A stretch of DNA of 64,000 nucleotides from Escherichia coli (lineage in GTDB: Bacteria; Pseudomonadota; Gammaproteobacteria; Enterobacterales; Enterobacteriaceae): assembly GCF_024502345.1 (NCBI RefSeq), contig NZ_JALDNN010000001.1; one strand, written 5' to 3'. How positions within the stretch are numbered: the first letter of the stretch is position 1; each line of letters starts with the position of its first letter. This document shows, one piece after another, positions 15,108-55,357 of the stretch. The translations under genes and the position numbers were made by a program. The notes beneath the pieces are model-generated. The model did no database searches and was not told where the DNA came from. It saw nothing but the letters and a program-made list of their open reading frames with translations.

Positions 15108-15530
15108 TTACGGTGTTACCCCTTTTTTTAAAAGAATATTCCCGTACTTCGCTCGTTCGCCTGTGATAACGATCGCAAAGGCTTTTTGCGCCCGTTCATA
15201 AAACGCAAAACGATTGATGCGGATGATGTCAGGACACGGGACTTGTAGTGAAAGCGCATTACGGTAACGTCGTTCTACTTCAGGATCGAGAGTGTCACCT
15301 TCTACCGCTGCCATCATCACCAGCGGCGGTGCATAACTGTCCAGCTCAAATAACGGGATAATCGCCTGGAGCAAGTCGCTCACCAACAGGCCATCAGCGC
15401 GGATCACCTGCGGTCCCATCGAATGGGCGGGAAAGTGAGCATCGGAAAAAATAATTTCATCTCCATGTCCCATCTCTGCCAGCACTTTCAATAGTTCGGG
15501 AGAAATTAACGGCGAAATTGTTTTCAGCAT
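15108..15530 (-). CDS. fucU: L-fucose mutarotase FucU (140 aa)
   Basis: 140-aa ORF, RbsD/FucU family; position in the fuc operon. Confidence 0.9.
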
Positions 15531-17058: not shown

Positions 17059-18834
17059 TTAACGCTTGTACAACGGCCCGTAGTTCTGGCAAGCGCGGTA
17101 ATCCTGGCCTTCAATATCCATGCCGTGCGCAGCCCAGGCAGAAGGACGATACACTTTGGTCTCTTCAACGTTGTGCATACATACCGGGATACGCAGCATG
17201 GAGGCGAGAGTGATAAAGTCTGCGCCAACGTGGCCGATGGTCAGAACCCCATGGTTAGCGCCCCAGTTCGCCATTACCGAGTACACATCCGTAAACGGCC
17301 CTTTACCGGTGAGGCGCGGTGCAAACCAGGTGGTTGGCCAGGTTGAGTTGGTGCGTTTGTTGAGGATGTCATGCACATCCTTCGGCAATTCCACGCTCCA
17401 GCCTTCCGCGATTTGCAGTACCGGTCCCAGGCCTTTGATGATGTTGACACGAGTCATGGTGAACGGGACGCCGCCTTCGGTAAGGAAGCGGGAAGAGTAA
17501 CCGCCGCCACGGAAGTATTCGTGGATCGCCGGGCACCATTCGGTAGCGGCGAGGCAAGCGTCAGCCTCTTGCTGAGAGATTTCCCAGTGTGGCTTCATCG
17601 TCGGGTTACCTTCGCTGTCGCGTTGTTTACAGGAACCGTCCAGCGCAGCAGAACCTGAGTTGATCAAATGGATGATGCCGTGTTCTGCCAGTCCATCGAG
17701 TTTATGCCCCGTTACACGCTCAATTGCTTCTGGTGACCAGTAGGTACGCACATCGGCAAATACCTGAGCGGTGCCGGTGAGCTGGTGACCCATTAGCATT
17801 GCCACGCCGTTAAGACTGTCGTTTTCAGTCGCCACGACAAAGGGTTCGCGCACGCCATTCCAGTCAAATGAACTGTTAAGGAGCGCTTCGGCGGTGTCGC
17901 CATTGGGATATTGATCGGTCCAGTGGCGTTGTCCCTGGAAGCCCGCAGCGATGGCGTTGTAGCCAAGTGATTCTTCCACGCGACCAATATCGGCCAGTTT
18001 GCTGTTGCCTTGCATCATGTCGCGGATACACATCGCCATCAGTAAACTTTCGCGCAGAACTGCGCGGCTTTGCTCGGCATTGCGTTGATACTGTTTGTTA
18101 TTTTCATCTTCGCCATAGCGGAAGTTTTTATCAGCCCAGGCCAGCGCCATTTCCAGTTCGGCTTCGTCGTAAATCTTCTGATCGATACGGCGACGCAGTT
18201 CGGTCATATCCACCGCCTGGACTTTCATTCCCAGCCAGGATTCAAAGAAGTTGTGATCAACAATAGAACCGGCGATACCCATCGAAACGCCGCCCAGCGA
18301 CAGATAGCTTTTACCTTTCATGCTGGCGACGGCCAAACCGGCGCGGGCAAAGCGCAGCAGTTTTTCTTCAACATCGGCAGGAATCGATGTGTCATCGGCA
18401 TCCTGAACGTCATGACCGTAAATGGAGAATGCCGGGATGCCTTTCTGGCTGTGAGCTGCCAGAGCCGCTGCCAGGTAAACAGCGCCGGGACGTTCAGTGC
18501 CGTTAAAGCCCCAAATGGCTTTCGGGCGGGTTGGATCCATGTCGATGGTTTCACTGCCATAGCACCAGCAAGGCGTTACCGTAATGGTGAGGCCTACATT
18601 CTGGCTGCTGAATTTTTCTTCGCAAGCAGCGGCTTCAGCCATACCCGCGATACAGGTATCGGAAATGACACACTCGACGGCAGCTCCGCAGGCATGGCGC
18701 AGTTTCTCGGTCAGCAGTGCGGCCGTAGCTTTCGCCATATTCATTGTTTGTTCTTCAAGCGACTCACGAACACCCATGCGACGACCGTCAATAACCGGGC
18801 GGATACCAATTTTCGGTAAGCTGATTTTTTTCAT
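17059..18834 (-). CDS. fucI: L-fucose isomerase FucI (591 aa)
   Basis: 591-aa ORF recognised as FucI. Confidence 0.93.
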
Positions 18835-18866
18835 TACAGATTCCTCACTTTATTCGGAAAATATGT

Positions 18867-20183
18867 TCAGTTAGTTGCCGTTTGAGAACGGAAACGGGCA
18901 AAGATAAAGATGACCGCGAAGCAGAGTGCGGGGATCAGTTCAGCAGTGGGGATGTTGCCCGCCGCGTCACTGACAAAACCCATGACCGGAGTGACAATAC
19001 CGCCGCCAATGATGGTCATAACGATGAAGGACGAACCGTATTTGGTGTCCTGGCCGAGATTCTTAATGCCCAGCGAGAAGATTGTTGGGTACTGAATCGA
19101 CATAAAGGCGCTGCATAAAGTCAGGGCTATTAAGCCCACATGACCGCCAGCGAAGGCTGAGATCAGGCACAGTGCCATAGCGATTAATGCGTAGGCGGCC
19201 AGGACTTTGTGTGGTGCGAAGCGACTGATGAGCCTGGTACCGGTGAAACGACCAATAAAGAAGCACACCATGGTTCCGGTTAAATAGTTAGCGGCAAAGC
19301 CTGCAGTCATACCTGGAATTTCTTCTACAGCGTAGCGAATCAAATAGCTCCAGCAGGCCGTTTGTGCGCCAACGTAGCAGAATTGCGCTAATACTGCCCA
19401 GCGCCAGTGGCGAATACGCGCCAGGCGAGAAAGCGATGCGGAGAACGATCCTTGTTTGGCGTCACTGTGATTATCACTCTGCAATGCCGGGAATTTCGTC
19501 AGCATGATCAGCAGGGCGACCAGTAACACGATAGCCACGATGATCATATAAGGTGTCTGTACCGATAATACCAGGCTGTGTTTATACGCACTCAATTGCT
19601 CTGGAGACATTTTATCGAGAACGTCTTGCGATTGATGTGGCACGTTAGACAAAATAAGACTTTGCCCAAAGACAACCGCGATAATTGCGCCAAATGAGTT
19701 AAATGTTTGCGCAAGATTTAAGCGGAAGTGACCACTGCTTTCCGGCCCTAATACCGTAACAAAAGGGTTTGCGGCAGTTTCCAGACAACCTAATCCGGCT
19801 GCAATAATAAATAGGCCAACTAAAAATAAGGTGTAGTTCATTATTTCTGCCGCGGGCCAGAATAATGCAGCACCCAAGGCATATAAAAATAACCCGGTAA
19901 TAATCCCTGCTTTATAACTGAGTTTTTTCATCAATATCCCAGCAGGAATTGGGATAATGAAATAACCAAAGTAAAAGGCCGATTGGATCAGGCCAGCCTG
20001 GAAATTTGTCAGCGTAAAAGCCTGCTGGAATTGAGGTAATAAAATGTCGTTAAGGTTATTGGCTACCGCCCAAAGAAAAAACAGTGAGCACAGCAGCGCG
20101 AATGGAATAATGTAACTTCTGCTTTGCCCTGCATCTTTATCTACCGCACGGTAACTCTGCGTTTGTATTGATGTGTTTCCCAT
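18867..20183 (-). CDS. fucP: L-fucose:H+ symporter FucP (MFS, 438 aa)
   Basis: 438-aa polytopic membrane ORF recognised as FucP. Confidence 0.93.
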   Translation of the reverse strand: MGNTSIQTQSYRAVDKDAGQSRSYIIPFALLCSLFFLWAVANNLNDILLPQFQQAFTLTNFQAGLIQSAFYFGYFIIPIPAGILMKKLSYKAGIITGLFLYALGAALFWPAAEIMNYTLFLVGLFIIAAGLGCLETAANPFVTVLGPESSGHFRLNLAQTFNSFGAIIAVVFGQSLILSNVPHQSQDVLDKMSPEQLSAYKHSLVLSVQTPYMIIVAIVLLVALLIMLTKFPALQSDNHSDAKQGSFSASLSRLARIRHWRWAVLAQFCYVGAQTACWSYLIRYAVEEIPGMTAGFAANYLTGTMVCFFIGRFTGTRLISRFAPHKVLAAYALIAMALCLISAFAGGHVGLIALTLCSAFMSIQYPTIFSLGIKNLGQDTKYGSSFIVMTIIGGGIVTPVMGFVSDAAGNIPTAELIPALCFAVIFIFARFRSQTATN

Positions 20184-20371
20184 AGCATCCTCTTAGGTTC
20201 AGAAGCTTAAGCACGTAATCGGTTATGTTTTCAAAAGTGCAAAACCAGCGAGTTCGGGCTTCATATCAGTGAATATTTGCCTGTCTGAAATGAACTCATG
20301 GATTCATTTTCAAATAAAAAACGCTCTGTAATATGACGGCGGTCACACTTATTAGCTGGAAGGTGACTTTA

Positions 20372-20387
20372 TGTGACTACCATCACT
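20372..20387. promoter_or_regulatory. CRP-like site in the fucPIKUR / fucAO divergent control region
   Basis: TGTGA-ctacca-TCACt, one mismatch to TGTGA-N6-TCACA. Confidence 0.35.
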
Positions 20388-20729
20388 TTAATAATCGAAA
20401 TTTCATGCCCGTTTCAGAAAATAAATCATAAAAAACACAAACCAGATGACCGTATTAATTGTTTATGCCGAAAACGGGCATTCCTGGCTTAGGTGAATAG
20501 AAAAATGACCGTTTTGATAAATATTTTTAAGAGCGGTCATTTTTAATGGGGTTATAAAAAGAGAACTTGCAGTTATTTGCTGTGATTAGTTGAGCCAGGT
20601 CACAAAATATAAGCTTGTGAATTTCTTTCTTGTTAATCAGGAAGAAGATGGTGGGTAATTAAACGGCTAATTCAATAGTGTGAAAGGAACAACATTATTG
20701 CCCTGTTTTGAATCAGAGAGAGGTAGCTA

Positions 20730-21377
20730 ATGGAACGAAATAAACTTGCTCGTCAGATTATTGACACTTGCCTGGAAATGACCCGCCTGGGACTGAACCA
20801 GGGGACAGCGGGGAACGTCAGTGTACGTTATCAGGATGGGATGCTGATTACGCCTACAGGCATTCCATATGAAAAACTGACGGAGTCGCATATTGTCTTT
20901 ATTGATGGCAACGGTAAACATGAGGAAGGAAAGCTCCCCTCAAGCGAATGGCGTTTCCATATGGCGGCCTATCAAAGCAGACCGGATGCCAACGCGGTTG
21001 TTCACAATCATGCCGTTCATTGCACAGCAGTTTCCATTCTTAACCGACCGATCCCCGCTATTCACTACATGATTGCGGCGGCAGGTGGTAATTCTATTCC
21101 TTGCGCGCCTTATGCGACCTTTGGAACACGCGAACTTTCTGAACATGTTGCGCTGGCTCTCAAAAATCGTAAGGCAACTTTGTTACAACATCATGGGCTT
21201 ATCGCTTGTGAGGTGAATCTGGAAAAAGCGTTATGGTTGGCGCATGAAGTTGAAGTGCTGGCGCAACTTTACCTGACGACCCTGGCGATTACGGACCCGG
21301 TGCCAGTGCTGAGCGATGAAGAGATTGCCGTAGTGCTGGAGAAATTCAAAACCTATGGGTTACGGATTGAAGAGTAA
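20730..21377 (+). CDS. fucA: L-fuculose-1-phosphate aldolase FucA (215 aa)
   Basis: 215-aa class II aldolase ORF. Confidence 0.93.
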   Translation: MERNKLARQIIDTCLEMTRLGLNQGTAGNVSVRYQDGMLITPTGIPYEKLTESHIVFIDGNGKHEEGKLPSSEWRFHMAAYQSRPDANAVVHNHAVHCTAVSILNRPIPAIHYMIAAAGGNSIPCAPYATFGTRELSEHVALALKNRKATLLQHHGLIACEVNLEKALWLAHEVEVLAQLYLTTLAITDPVPVLSDEEIAVVLEKFKTYGLRIEE

Positions 21378-21401
21378 TTTCGTAAAGCAACAAGGAGAAG
21401 G

Positions 21402-22553
21402 ATGATGGCTAACAGAATGATTCTGAACGAAACGGCATGGTTTGGTCGGGGTGCTGTTGGGGCTTTAACCGATGAGGTGAAACGCCGTGGTTATCAGAAG
21501 GCGCTGATCGTCACCGATAAAACGCTGGTGCAATGCGGCGTGGTGGCGAAAGTGACCGATAAGATGGATGCTGCAGGGCTGGTATGGGCGATTTACGACG
21601 GCGTAGTGCCCAACCCAACAATTACTGTCGTCAAAGAAGGGCTCGGTGTATTCCAGAATAGCGGCGCGGATTACCTGATCGCTATTGGTGGTGGTTCTCC
21701 ACAGGATACTTGTAAAGCGATTGGCATAATCAGCAACAACCCGGAGTTTGCCGATGTGCGTAGCCTGGAAGGGCTTTCCCCGACCAATAAACCCAGTGTA
21801 CCGATTCTGGCAATTCCTACCACAGCAGGTACTGCGGCAGAAGTGACCATTAACTACGTGATCACTGACGAAGAGAAACGGCGCAAGTTTGTTTGCGTTG
21901 ATCCGCATGATATCCCGCAGGTGGCGTTTATTGACGCTGACATGATGGATGGTATGCCTCCAGCGCTGAAAGCTGCGACGGGTGTCGATGCGCTCACTCA
22001 TGCTATTGAGGGGTATATTACCCGTGGCGCGTGGGCGCTAACCGATGCACTGCACATTAAAGCGATTGAAATCATTGCTGGGGCGCTGCGAGGATCGGTT
22101 GCTGGTGATAAGGATGCCGGAGAAGAAATGGCGCTCGGGCAGTATGTTGCGGGTATGGGCTTCTCGAATGTTGGGTTAGGGTTGGTGCATGGTATGGCGC
22201 ATCCACTGGGCGCGTTTTACAACACTCCACACGGTGTTGCGAACGCCATCCTGTTACCGCATGTCATGCGCTATAACGCTGACTTTACCGGTGAGAAGTA
22301 CCGCGATATCGCGCGCGTTATGGGCGTGAAAGTGGAAGGTATGAGCCTGGAAGAGGCGCGTAATGCCGCTGTTGAAGCGGTGTTTGCTCTCAACCGTGAT
22401 GTCGGTATTCCGCCACATTTGCGTGATGTTGGTGTACGCAAGGAAGACATTCCGGCACTGGCGCAGGCGGCACTGGATGATGTTTGTACCGGTGGCAACC
22501 CGCGTGAAGCAACGCTTGAGGATATTGTAGAGCTTTATCATACCGCCTGGTAA
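21402..22553 (+). CDS. fucO: Lactaldehyde reductase / propanediol oxidoreductase FucO (iron-containing ADH)
   Basis: 383-aa ORF (true start may be the second Met at 21405); Fe-ADH family. Confidence 0.93.
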   Translation: MMANRMILNETAWFGRGAVGALTDEVKRRGYQKALIVTDKTLVQCGVVAKVTDKMDAAGLVWAIYDGVVPNPTITVVKEGLGVFQNSGADYLIAIGGGSPQDTCKAIGIISNNPEFADVRSLEGLSPTNKPSVPILAIPTTAGTAAEVTINYVITDEEKRRKFVCVDPHDIPQVAFIDADMMDGMPPALKAATGVDALTHAIEGYITRGAWALTDALHIKAIEIIAGALRGSVAGDKDAGEEMALGQYVAGMGFSNVGLGLVHGMAHPLGAFYNTPHGVANAILLPHVMRYNADFTGEKYRDIARVMGVKVEGMSLEEARNAAVEAVFALNRDVGIPPHLRDVGVRKEDIPALAQAALDDVCTGGNPREATLEDIVELYHTAW

Positions 22554-52975: not shown

Positions 52976-54253
52976 TTACTTGCTGCTAGCCATTGCGGGG
53001 GCGCTATCAGCAGTACGAATTTTTTGGAACAGCAAAAAGGTAAAGACAATCACCATGGCAAGCGCCGCCATTCCCATCAGCCACATATTGCGGTAGGCTT
53101 CTGCTGCGGGCAGGGTGTCTTGCCAGTGGCCGATAATCGGGTAAACGAAGACATCCGGCAGGAATCCAATCACCGAACAAATACCTACCGTGGTGCCCAT
53201 AATGTAAGACGGTGTTCTCGCTTCGCCAGGGCAGGCCCAGTACAGCCCGCGTGAGGCGTAACAGGTGAATCCCAGCAGTAAAATCAGGCCAATCCCCATC
53301 GCGACCGATTGCGGGTTAGAGTTCGTGACGAGCAGGGCAGTTAACGCCAGCAGGTCGAGTACGGAAAGGATTTGGATCACGCGGGTAGGGGATTTCACTT
53401 TACTGTAGGTGGTGATAATGCCGCCAAGTGGGCCGCACAGCGCGCGGAAGATTTTGTTGATCACAATCCCCATGTAGCTCGCTGCCACCAGCGACATGCC
53501 GTACATTTCGGTCAGATAGTTGGTGGAGTAACTCAGAATGGCGTAGATTGTGAAGACACCAAAAATCACCATGCTGCAATACCAGGTGGTGCTGATACGC
53601 AAAACGGCAAGGATGTCGCTAAGCTGGAATGACTGTTTTTCTTCGTTATTGGCACTGCGCAGGTTGTTGTTATCGCTAACAAAAAACCAGCACAGAATCC
53701 CCAACAAGATGTAAACCACACTGTAGATGATAATGACTGTTTTCAGGCTGGCGCTGTCATCCGGTGCAAAGCGAGAAAAGACCCACATGGTAAACACCGC
53801 CAGCGACATTACACCGACGCCGCGCAGCCCTTCCATCCAGCCCATAATTTTCCCTTGCTCACTATGATCGCCCAGCAACGAGGCGGCTTTAATCGACACC
53901 GACCACAGCATTAAAATCGTCGTTATCGCAAAGGCGACCTGAATACAGAGCATTACCCACAGCGGTGGATACGTTGCCATTAACAGACCCAGTAATCCGG
54001 TAATGATCATCGCGGAAGTAATCATTTTGCGGTGTGAAAATTTATCGGCAATAACGCCGCTGGGGGCATAAAGAATAATAGCCGCAATACCAAAGGTACT
54101 CATTATTAAACCTATCTCGGTATTGCTGAATCCCATAAATTTCGCCATGGGAATTTGATAAATATAACGTAAATAAGCCAGGTCAAAACTAACGCCGCCG
54201 CTAAAACTAATTATCGCGAGGGTTATCCAACGGCGATATGAGTTGTGTTGCAT
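52976..54253 (-). CDS. yqcE: MFS transporter YqcE (425 aa)
   Basis: 425-aa 12-TM-like ORF directly upstream of ygcE on the same strand. Confidence 0.8.
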   Translation of the reverse strand: MQHNSYRRWITLAIISFSGGVSFDLAYLRYIYQIPMAKFMGFSNTEIGLIMSTFGIAAIILYAPSGVIADKFSHRKMITSAMIITGLLGLLMATYPPLWVMLCIQVAFAITTILMLWSVSIKAASLLGDHSEQGKIMGWMEGLRGVGVMSLAVFTMWVFSRFAPDDSASLKTVIIIYSVVYILLGILCWFFVSDNNNLRSANNEEKQSFQLSDILAVLRISTTWYCSMVIFGVFTIYAILSYSTNYLTEMYGMSLVAASYMGIVINKIFRALCGPLGGIITTYSKVKSPTRVIQILSVLDLLALTALLVTNSNPQSVAMGIGLILLLGFTCYASRGLYWACPGEARTPSYIMGTTVGICSVIGFLPDVFVYPIIGHWQDTLPAAEAYRNMWLMGMAALAMVIVFTFLLFQKIRTADSAPAMASSK

Positions 54254-54431
54254 ATCGTATTCCCATTTGTAATAGAAAAAAAAAAGAGAAAAGTAAGCCG
54301 CCCTTTCAGGTGGATTACTTTTCTCAGGTCTCTAGTAATTGCAATAAGAAATAACATGGAAAGCAGAGGTGTTGTGTGAGAGTAATCACGCTTCTGCTTT
54401 TTAAAACTATTTGACAATACGAATATCACAC

Positions 54432-54447
54432 TGTGATTACGATCACA
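54432..54447. promoter_or_regulatory. Consensus CRP site in the yqcE / ygcW divergent intergenic region
   Basis: TGTGA-ttacga-TCACA, perfect match to both half-sites. Confidence 0.6.
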
Positions 54448-54498
54448 TTAGCAGTTATGCCGTTATGCTAAAAATTATCTCCAGTTACCAGAGATAAT

Positions 54499-54547
54499 GA
54501 GAAAGGTAACTTCCCTCTCGCGGGGGAAGTTACCTTTCTTTTTTTTT
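54499..54547 (+). terminator. Strong intrinsic-terminator-like hairpin in the ygcW leader (candidate attenuator)
   Basis: Perfect 16-bp stem agaaaggtaacttccc/gggaagttacctttct, loop tctcgcg, then a T9 run; ends 25 bp before the ygcW ATG. Confidence 0.7.
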
Positions 54548-54571
54548 GCCTTACGGAAATTGGAGCTAACT

Positions 54572-55357
54572 ATGTCAATCGAATCTCTCAATGCGTTCTC
54601 AATGGATTTTTTCTCACTGAAAGGTAAAACCGCAATTGTTACCGGTGGGAATAGCGGTTTAGGCCAGGCATTTGCCATGGCGTTGGCCAAAGCTGGCGCA
54701 AATATCTTTATTCCTAGTTTCGTCAAAGATAACGGCGAAACAAAGGAAATGATTGAAAAACAGGGTGTTGAGGTGGACTTCATGCAGGTGGATATCACCG
54801 CAGAAGGCGCGCCGCAGAAGATTATCGCTGCTTGCTGTGAGCGTTTCGGTACAGTTGATATTCTGGTAAACAATGCCGGTATTTGTAAGCTGAATAAGGT
54901 GCTGGACTTCGGTCGTGCCGACTGGGATCCGATGATTGATGTGAACCTGACCGCCGCATTCGAGTTAAGCTATGAAGCGGCAAAAATTATGATCCCGCAG
55001 AAAAGCGGCAAAATTATTAATATCTGTTCATTGTTCTCTTACTTAGGTGGACAATGGTCACCTGCATATTCTGCCACTAAACATGCTCTTGCCGGATTCA
55101 CCAAAGCTTATTGTGATGAACTAGGTCAATATAATATTCAGGTAAATGGTATTGCCCCTGGCTATTATGCAACAGATATTACGCTGGCGACACGCAGTAA
55201 TCCAGAAACCAATCAGCGCGTTCTTGATCATATTCCGGCAAACCGTTGGGGCGATACTCAGGATTTAATGGGCGCAGCTGTATTCCTCGCAAGTCCGGCT
55301 TCAAATTATGTCAATGGGCATTTATTAGTGGTCGATGGTGGTTATTTAGTGCGCTAA
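54572..55357 (+). CDS. ygcW: Short-chain dehydrogenase/reductase YgcW (261 aa)
   Basis: ORF 54497..55357; start set at MSIESLNAF after a GGAG RBS; SDR motif TGGNSGLG. Confidence 0.85.
   Translation: MSIESLNAFSMDFFSLKGKTAIVTGGNSGLGQAFAMALAKAGANIFIPSFVKDNGETKEMIEKQGVEVDFMQVDITAEGAPQKIIAACCERFGTVDILVNNAGICKLNKVLDFGRADWDPMIDVNLTAAFELSYEAAKIMIPQKSGKIINICSLFSYLGGQWSPAYSATKHALAGFTKAYCDELGQYNIQVNGIAPGYYATDITLATRSNPETNQRVLDHIPANRWGDTQDLMGAAVFLASPASNYVNGHLLVVDGGYLVR

Follow-up and report, generated by a model that had tools for sequence, protein, structure and literature searches.

The control region between the two divergent L-fucose operons of Escherichia coli is already known in detail, having been dissected experimentally in strain K-12 in 2024-2025. 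In that strain, the 546-bp region between fucPIK and fucAO carries four Crp-cAMP sites together with FucR sites and integrates both controls (PMC11011485; PMC11894529). OCrp0 and OCrp1 lie near the fucPIK promoter and are important for fucPIK, and OCrp2 and OCrp3 belong to PfucAO; K-12 deletion analysis found OCrp0 and OCrp1 to be dispensable for PfucAO (PMC11011485). Mutation of OCrp2 (printed as ttagtTGAaccaggTCACAaaa) gave a 14- to 350-fold loss, marking the site as essential, and mutation of OCrp3 (printed as tagTGTGAaaggaacaACAtta) gave a loss of ∼30%, marking it as accessory (PMC11011485). OCrp0 is printed as taaTaTGAcggcggTCACActt, and the CTAG target of the insertion element IS5 is placed between OCrp0 and OCrp1 (PMC11894529). 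Binding of cAMP-CRP and loss of activation upon mutation have been reported for K-12 in work cited in PMC11011485 and PMC11894529.

The FucR boxes mutated in K-12 are OFucR2 and OFucR3 (PMC11011485). Mutation of the former, printed as CCGAAAACGGTCATT, cuts induced PfucAO activity by ∼30%; mutation of the latter (TTAAGAGCGGTCATT) causes a >50-fold drop, making this box essential for fucose induction (PMC11011485). Four FucR sites are known, two of them listed as "putative" for fucPIKUR (PMC11894529). The fucA transcription start was located by 5′RACE in K-12 at a C at position -63 (PMC11011485), and the fucP leader is said to contain a published SrsR site (PMC11011485). What the work of others in K-12 has established thus comprises the four CRP sites, OFucR2 and OFucR3, the start of fucA, and the requirement for both Crp and FucR.

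The locus examined here lies in a 64-kb stretch of E. coli DNA (referred to here as the window). A preliminary description of this DNA had proposed a 546-bp, AT-rich divergent interval between fucPIKUR and fucAO, and both properties are borne out: the exact ends of the open reading frames and RefSeq annotation define a gap of 546 bp (positions 20184 to 20729) between fucP, the first gene of fucPIKUR, and fucA, the first gene of fucAO, and the G+C content is 36.1% in the gap, 48 to 49% in the flanking genes, and 50.8% in the window as a whole. The gene order is identical to that of K-12 BW25113 (rlmM, fucR, fucU, fucK, fucI, and fucP on one side; fucA, fucO, xni, sdaB, and sdaC on the other), and all seven fuc proteins are intact, with 99 to 100% identity to those of K-12 (243/243 residues for FucR). 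The reference-strain alignment that had been suggested as a check for insertions is gap free: the K-12 region has the same length and matches 536 of 546 positions (98% identity), leaving 10 substitutions and no indel, and no insertion is present. The K-12 region corresponds to the window in locus, length, flanking genes, the four Crp sites, both validated FucR sites, their offsets, and the -10 element as well as the start base of PfucAO; it differs by ten substitutions, which include positions in the IS5 target, OFucR2, and the OCrp2 spacer. At the level of sequence, this comparison confirms that the window has the standard, uninterrupted wild-type form of the fuc control region. Feature coordinates are collected in Table 1.

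Table 1. Features of the fucP-fucA interval and its flanking genes, in window coordinates. Conservation is the mean identity to the window base over 45 regions; for CRP sites, the value refers to the half-sites.
Feature	Position	Strand	Sequence or basis	Conservation
fucP, L-fucose:H+ symporter	18867-20183	-	438-aa ORF; 437/438 identical to K-12 FucP; RefSeq annotation of matches	
fucP 5′ leader (predicted), ∼116 nt	20184-20299	-	+1 placed from -10-like hexamer	
OCrp0, promoter-proximal CRP site of PfucPIKUR	20329-20350		TAATATGACGGCGGTCACACTT; identical to printed OCrp0; 1 core mismatch	0.97
K-12 IS5 target CTAG position	20356-20359		-374 to -371 from fucA ATG; CTGG here	
OCrp1, upstream CRP site of PfucPIKUR	20369-20390		Contains 20372-20387; 1 core mismatch; assigned by position	0.99
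FucR box A (putative), orphan half-site	20404-20418	-	TCTGAAACGGGCATG; 12/15	0.88
FucR box B (putative), left half of inverted pair B-C	20445-20459	-	ATTAATACGGTCATC; 14/15	0.80
FucR box C = OFucR2	20468-20482	+	CCGAAAACGGGCATT; in K-12, ...CGGTCATT; 14/15	0.86
FucR box D (putative), left half of inverted pair D-E	20504-20518	-	ATCAAAACGGTCATT; 15/15, best in gap	0.91
FucR box E = OFucR3	20527-20541	+	TTAAGAGCGGTCATT; 12/15; identical to printed sequence	0.67
OCrp2, essential PfucAO CRP site	20586-20607		TTAGTTGAGCCAGGTCACAAAA; printed OCrp2 except a→g in spacer	0.89
PfucAO -10 element AATTAA; start C	20657-20662; 20667	+	K-12 5′RACE, -63 from fucA ATG; verified in window	
OCrp3, accessory CRP site in fucA 5′ leader	20676-20697		TAGTGTGAAAGGAACAACATTA; identical to printed OCrp3; 2 core mismatches	0.22
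fucA, L-fuculose-phosphate aldolase	20730-21377	+	215-aa ORF, ATG at 20730; 214/215 identical to K-12; RefSeq annotation of matches	
Rest of gap	20208-20715			0.48

The interval is almost certainly the canonical two-way control region that governs the L-fucose regulon of E. coli through activation by CRP and FucR. The preliminary description had expected integration of these two regulators, and this expectation is supported by strongly positive motif scans for both as well as by the literature (PMC11011485; PMC11894529). The evidence contributed here is that the sequence is collinear with, and nearly identical to, that of K-12, that binding sites are statistically enriched, and that those sites are conserved across species. 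Within E. coli, a megablast search using positions 20084 to 20829 (746 bp; the gap plus 100-bp flanks) retrieved the segment from 5,041 of 5,426 complete genomes, with coverage of at least 80% in 5,011; the segment was chromosomal in every place but one, and among the matches listed, RefSeq annotation showed it flanked by fucP and fucA. The result matters little beyond correct annotation; the region is a textbook case of combined global (cAMP-CRP) and specific (FucR) catabolic control.

CRP sites were scanned as 22-bp, twofold-symmetric sites with the core TGTGA-N6-TCACA. The near-consensus pair of half-sites noted earlier at 20372 to 20387 (TGTGACTACCATCACT) reads TGTGA-N6-TCACT, which matches 9 of the 10 core bases and leaves a single mismatch. 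The window contains 6 sites with at most one mismatch, whereas shuffles predict 1.83; two of these 6 fall within the gap, at 20332 to 20347 and 20372 to 20387, 40 bp apart, where ∼0.016 would be expected. With up to two core mismatches allowed, the scan was again strongly positive, giving four sites in the gap against the 0.24 expected from the window-wide density. These four coincide with the printed sequences of OCrp0, OCrp2, and OCrp3 and with the described position of OCrp1. The assignment of 20372 to 20387 as OCrp1 of the fucPIKUR promoter is one by position: no other CRP-like site lies between the position of the IS5 target and OCrp2, the interval in which the papers place OCrp1. Since K-12 deletions leave PfucAO independent of OCrp0 and OCrp1 (PMC11011485), the motif serves fucPIKUR. 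The single CRP site of the preliminary description is thus real, but the gap holds four, and the one that had been noticed acts on fucPIKUR rather than on fucAO.

FucR boxes were scored against the 15-nt, DAP-seq-derived consensus RYSMRHW-CGG-K-CA-W-B, with CGGKCAT as the core heptamer; the consensus used in PMC11011485 comes from Baumgart et al. 2021. The proposed FucR scan uncovered five boxes in the gap (A to E), two of which are the validated OFucR2 and OFucR3. The core heptamer occurs 23 times in the 64-kb window (21 expected overall), and 5 of these occurrences lie within the 136 bp from 20405 to 20540; for the gap, ∼0.18 would be expected. Sites scoring at least 14/15 number nine in the window, three of them in the gap. 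The degenerate 15-nt consensus is loose, with 82 sites in the window reaching 11/15 or more, and we therefore go by the enrichment of high-scoring sites, the core heptamer, and conservation instead of by the scores of single sites. As PMC11894529 already has four FucR sites, at most one of the five boxes in the gap is new. Elsewhere in the window, five CGGTCAT heptamers occur at 18201 to 19146, across the 5′ end of fucI and the 3′ half of fucP; three of these score 11 to 13 of 15 and two score below 11, and they may be due to chance or be codon driven.

The arrangement of the boxes is regular. B with C and D with E form inverted pairs of the type ATGACCG-N22-CGGKCAT, each with a 22-bp spacer and with the two pairs 59 bp apart, and the fit of the putative left halves, B and D, to the consensus equals or exceeds that of the validated right halves, C and E. 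With five half-sites between 20404 and 20541, four of them in two inverted pairs, the boxes probably form a shared FucR array situated between the two CRP-dependent promoters. From this pattern we infer that FucR would bind boxes A, B, and D as well and that the boxes would act as paired operators. The functional FucR operator may then be a 36-bp inverted unit, ATGMCCG-N22-CGGKCAT, in which B and D are true contacts, with the array serving both promoters.

To obtain a cross-species footprint, one genome per species was scanned with FucA, which yielded 80 loci. In 47 of these, fucP and fucA diverge across a gap of 419 to 665 bp; the long gap is ancestral and no oddity of this strain. Three Edwardsiella loci, in which the upstream transporter is only 45 to 49% identical to FucP, were left out. 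The remaining 30 loci lack a divergent fucP within 2.5 kb upstream (L025, L032-L039, L043-L045, L047, L049, L051-L053, L055-L064, L066-L068, and L071; many from Citrobacter, Atlantibacter, Buttiauxella, and Enterobacter) and appear to carry either an additional fucA-like gene or another operon organization. After removal of two near-duplicate Escherichia loci, 45 regions from Enterobacterales species were aligned (the window and 44 loci), with genera including Escherichia, Salmonella, Citrobacter, Klebsiella, Raoultella, Kluyvera, Hafnia, Rahnella, Yersinia, and Photorhabdus. These species are related, and the site counts that follow are therefore not independent events.

The tandem OCrp0-OCrp1 pair, with a center-to-center distance of 39 to 40 bp, is present in 42 of the 45 species, and a CRP site occupies the OCrp2 position in 41. 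OCrp3, on the other hand, was detected in Escherichia loci only, and its conservation (22%) lies below the gap background of 48%. FucR cores total 171 across the 45 regions, compared to 5.1 in shuffles. Among 47 pairs of (-)/(+) cores lying within 60 bp of each other, the spacer is 22 bp in 45 and 23 bp in 2, and at least one 22-bp pair is found in the fucP/fucA gaps of 35 of 45 species (loci L004-L081 and the window). Box A lies 25.5 bp from the OCrp1 center in 34 of 45 species, and in four of six Photorhabdus loci (L075, L078, L080, and L081) it is paired with a partner at the 22-bp spacing. In the window, the only moderately conserved stretch left unassigned, at ∼20430 to 20440 between boxes A and B, falls where the partner of A would be expected and may be a degenerate remnant of that half-site.

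Outside the CRP and FucR sites, conservation peaks at a fucP ribosome-binding/leader block (20184 to 20207), the fucP core promoter (20290 to 20322), the area around the PfucAO promoter, and the ribosome-binding site of fucA; the strongly conserved blocks in the 45 species all map to CRP, FucR, promoter, or ribosome-binding elements. The footprint thus backs the published sites, suggests a paired FucR operator architecture, and marks OCrp3 as Escherichia specific.

On the fucPIKUR side, a GAAAAT hexamer resembling a -10 element is located on the minus strand at 20311 to 20306. Judged from this hexamer, transcription of fucP would start at ∼20299, a geometry that would center OCrp0 at -40.5 and OCrp1 at -80.5. 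Activating CRP sites are centered at -41.5, -61.5, -71.5, -81.5, and so on. A genetic observation is of interest here: the insertion of a single T just on the promoter side of OCrp0 restores a Fuc+ phenotype in an IS5 mutant, and in this suppressed mutant IS5 had displaced OCrp1 and the FucR sites from the fucP promoter (PMC11894529). The 1-bp suppressor fits a shift of OCrp0 from -40.5 to -41.5, which is optimal for a class II site. For the leftward promoter, then, cAMP-CRP would activate from the tandem OCrp0 (∼-40.5) and OCrp1 (∼-80.5) sites upstream of a start at ∼20299, and FucR-fuculose-1-phosphate bound to the central boxes would add to this activation.

On the fucAO side, the start at 20667 places the center of OCrp2 at -70.5, a class I-like position, and that of OCrp3 at +20.5; the FucR sites lie at -130 to -260 from this start. 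Rightward transcription from PfucAO would accordingly begin at 20667, with CRP acting through OCrp2 as the essential site and OCrp3 as the accessory one, and with FucR required at OFucR3 for induction and playing an accessory part at OFucR2. According to the published model, FucR would aid CRP occupancy of OCrp2, and CRP would then recruit RNA polymerase. One detail of the published annotation does not match the window: the -35 element of PfucAO is quoted as TTGtgA at -96 to -91 from the fucA ATG (PMC11011485), and the window reads TAATCA at that position (20634 to 20639), with TTGTGA at -115 to -110 (20615 to 20620) and TTGTTA at -100 to -95.

Three of the ten substitutions relative to K-12 fall in named elements, and the remaining seven are in less conserved spacer DNA. 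The change of T to G at 20478 lies inside OFucR2, at a consensus position that permits T or G, and the change of A to G at 20594 lies in the OCrp2 spacer. The third, A to G at 20358, converts CTAG to CTGG. K-12 mutants acquire IS5 at CTAG, the target defined in PMC11894529 and PMC5493358 and the single one in all propanediol-positive mutants (PMC11894529; PMC5493358). The 546-bp gap contains no CTAG at all, and its alignment with K-12 reveals no IS5 or other insertion, so this is not the IS5-activated fucAO allele. Among 4,359 complete genomes with a match, the exact 57-mer with CTGG, as in the window, is found in 2,479 and that with CTAG, as in K-12, in 1,140; the K-12 hot spot is therefore the rarer of the two exact alleles. 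If CTAG is a minority allele, the IS5 "adaptive switch" at fucAO might fail, or act elsewhere, in most natural strains. Taken jointly, a 36-bp paired FucR operator and a minority CTAG target form a proposal to which we give slightly less than an even chance.

Several other readings of the region deserve consideration. Partial TGTGA/TCACA matches do arise in AT-rich DNA, and most of the 28 window sites with up to two core mismatches are probably nonfunctional; a chance match without any regulatory role is nevertheless a very improbable account of the CRP-like motif. Two one-mismatch sites stand 40 bp apart, their tandem spacing of 39 to 40 bp recurs in 42 of 45 species, the half-sites are 99% conserved over a background of 48%, and two CRP sites important to the activation of fucPIK are located here according to the literature (PMC11011485; PMC11894529). 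The near-consensus pair first noticed is thus well above chance, and conservation has effectively refuted the chance reading already. We consider it just as far-fetched that the length of the gap stems from an inserted mobile element, an unrecognized small gene, or a noncoding RNA, even though 546 bp is a long intergenic distance for E. coli and K-12 mutants gain IS5 here (PMC11894529; PMC5493358). The absence of indels relative to K-12, the maintenance of a 419- to 665-bp gap in the 45 aligned regions, and the fact that the conserved blocks are all explained by binding sites, promoters, and ribosome-binding sites argue against each of these origins. Insertion or rearrangement was ruled out by the gap-free K-12 alignment. 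The longest open reading frame within the gap encodes 39 amino acids and spans the conserved CRP and FucR sites, and it was rejected as a small gene. An Rfam scan of 19500 to 21500 at an E value of ≤1 returned no match and so gives no known small RNA or riboswitch. Generic scans of 20100 to 20800 found no terminator-like sites and no sigma-70 promoter-like sites; the latter result is uninformative, as both promoters are activator dependent and match the consensus poorly.

A different reading would see the gap mainly as a silencing patch for a nucleoid protein (e.g., H-NS), with CRP and FucR acting as antisilencers rather than as direct recruiters of polymerase. The G+C content of 36% would suit such a patch, a broad zone destabilized by superhelical stress has been mapped here (PMC5493358), and the fuc chromosomal context is repressive, with the lac locus supporting 14- to 66-fold higher activity of PfucAO and 3.5-fold higher activity of Ptet (PMC11011485). 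Direct recruitment is favored by the predicted class II-like position of OCrp0 and the class I position of OCrp2, as well as by the ability of OCrp0 alone to drive a class I fusion promoter (PMC11894529); moreover, a silencer protein for the fuc locus does not appear in PMC11011485, PMC11894529, or PMC5493358. We thus regard silencing as an unlikely principal mechanism. It is compatible with activation by CRP and FucR, which it would complement or modify rather than replace.

Additional CRP-like sites were observed in other parts of the window. A perfect core (TGTGATTACGATCACA) and a one-mismatch site occur at 54375 to 54390 and 54432 to 54447, 57 bp apart, within a segment (53800 to 55000) annotated with yqcE (major facilitator superfamily [MFS] transporter) and ygcW (short-chain dehydrogenase/reductase [SDR] oxidoreductase). 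This pair may mark another CRP-controlled region, possibly located between yqcE and ygcW. A further one-mismatch site (TGTGATAACGATCGCA) lies inside fucU at 15162 to 15177, with the start codon of fucR ∼110 bp downstream, and this putative CRP site may be tied to an internal fucR promoter.

In a broader context, the fuc region resembles class III (tandem-site) CRP promoters that use a sugar-specific coactivator, such as araBAD (AraC and CRP), malK/malE (MalT and CRP), and rhaBAD/rhaSR; class III CRP-dependent promoters were reportedly treated by Busby and Ebright in 1999. Like the fuc region, these are divergent catabolic regions in which CRP works with a pathway-specific activator that senses a pathway intermediate, with the sites for this activator located upstream of those for CRP. 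The fuc region differs from araBAD, malK, and rhaBAD in that its activator is of the DeoR family and in that the FucR sites are far upstream, at -130 to -260. Members of the DeoR family are for the most part repressors. DeoR, GlpR, and AgaR resemble FucR in having repeated operator half-sites distributed across >100 bp, a layout suggestive of oligomeric binding. FucR is set apart from these three proteins in that it activates rather than represses and in that its inverted half-sites, separated by 22 bp (29 bp from center to center), do not form compact palindromes.
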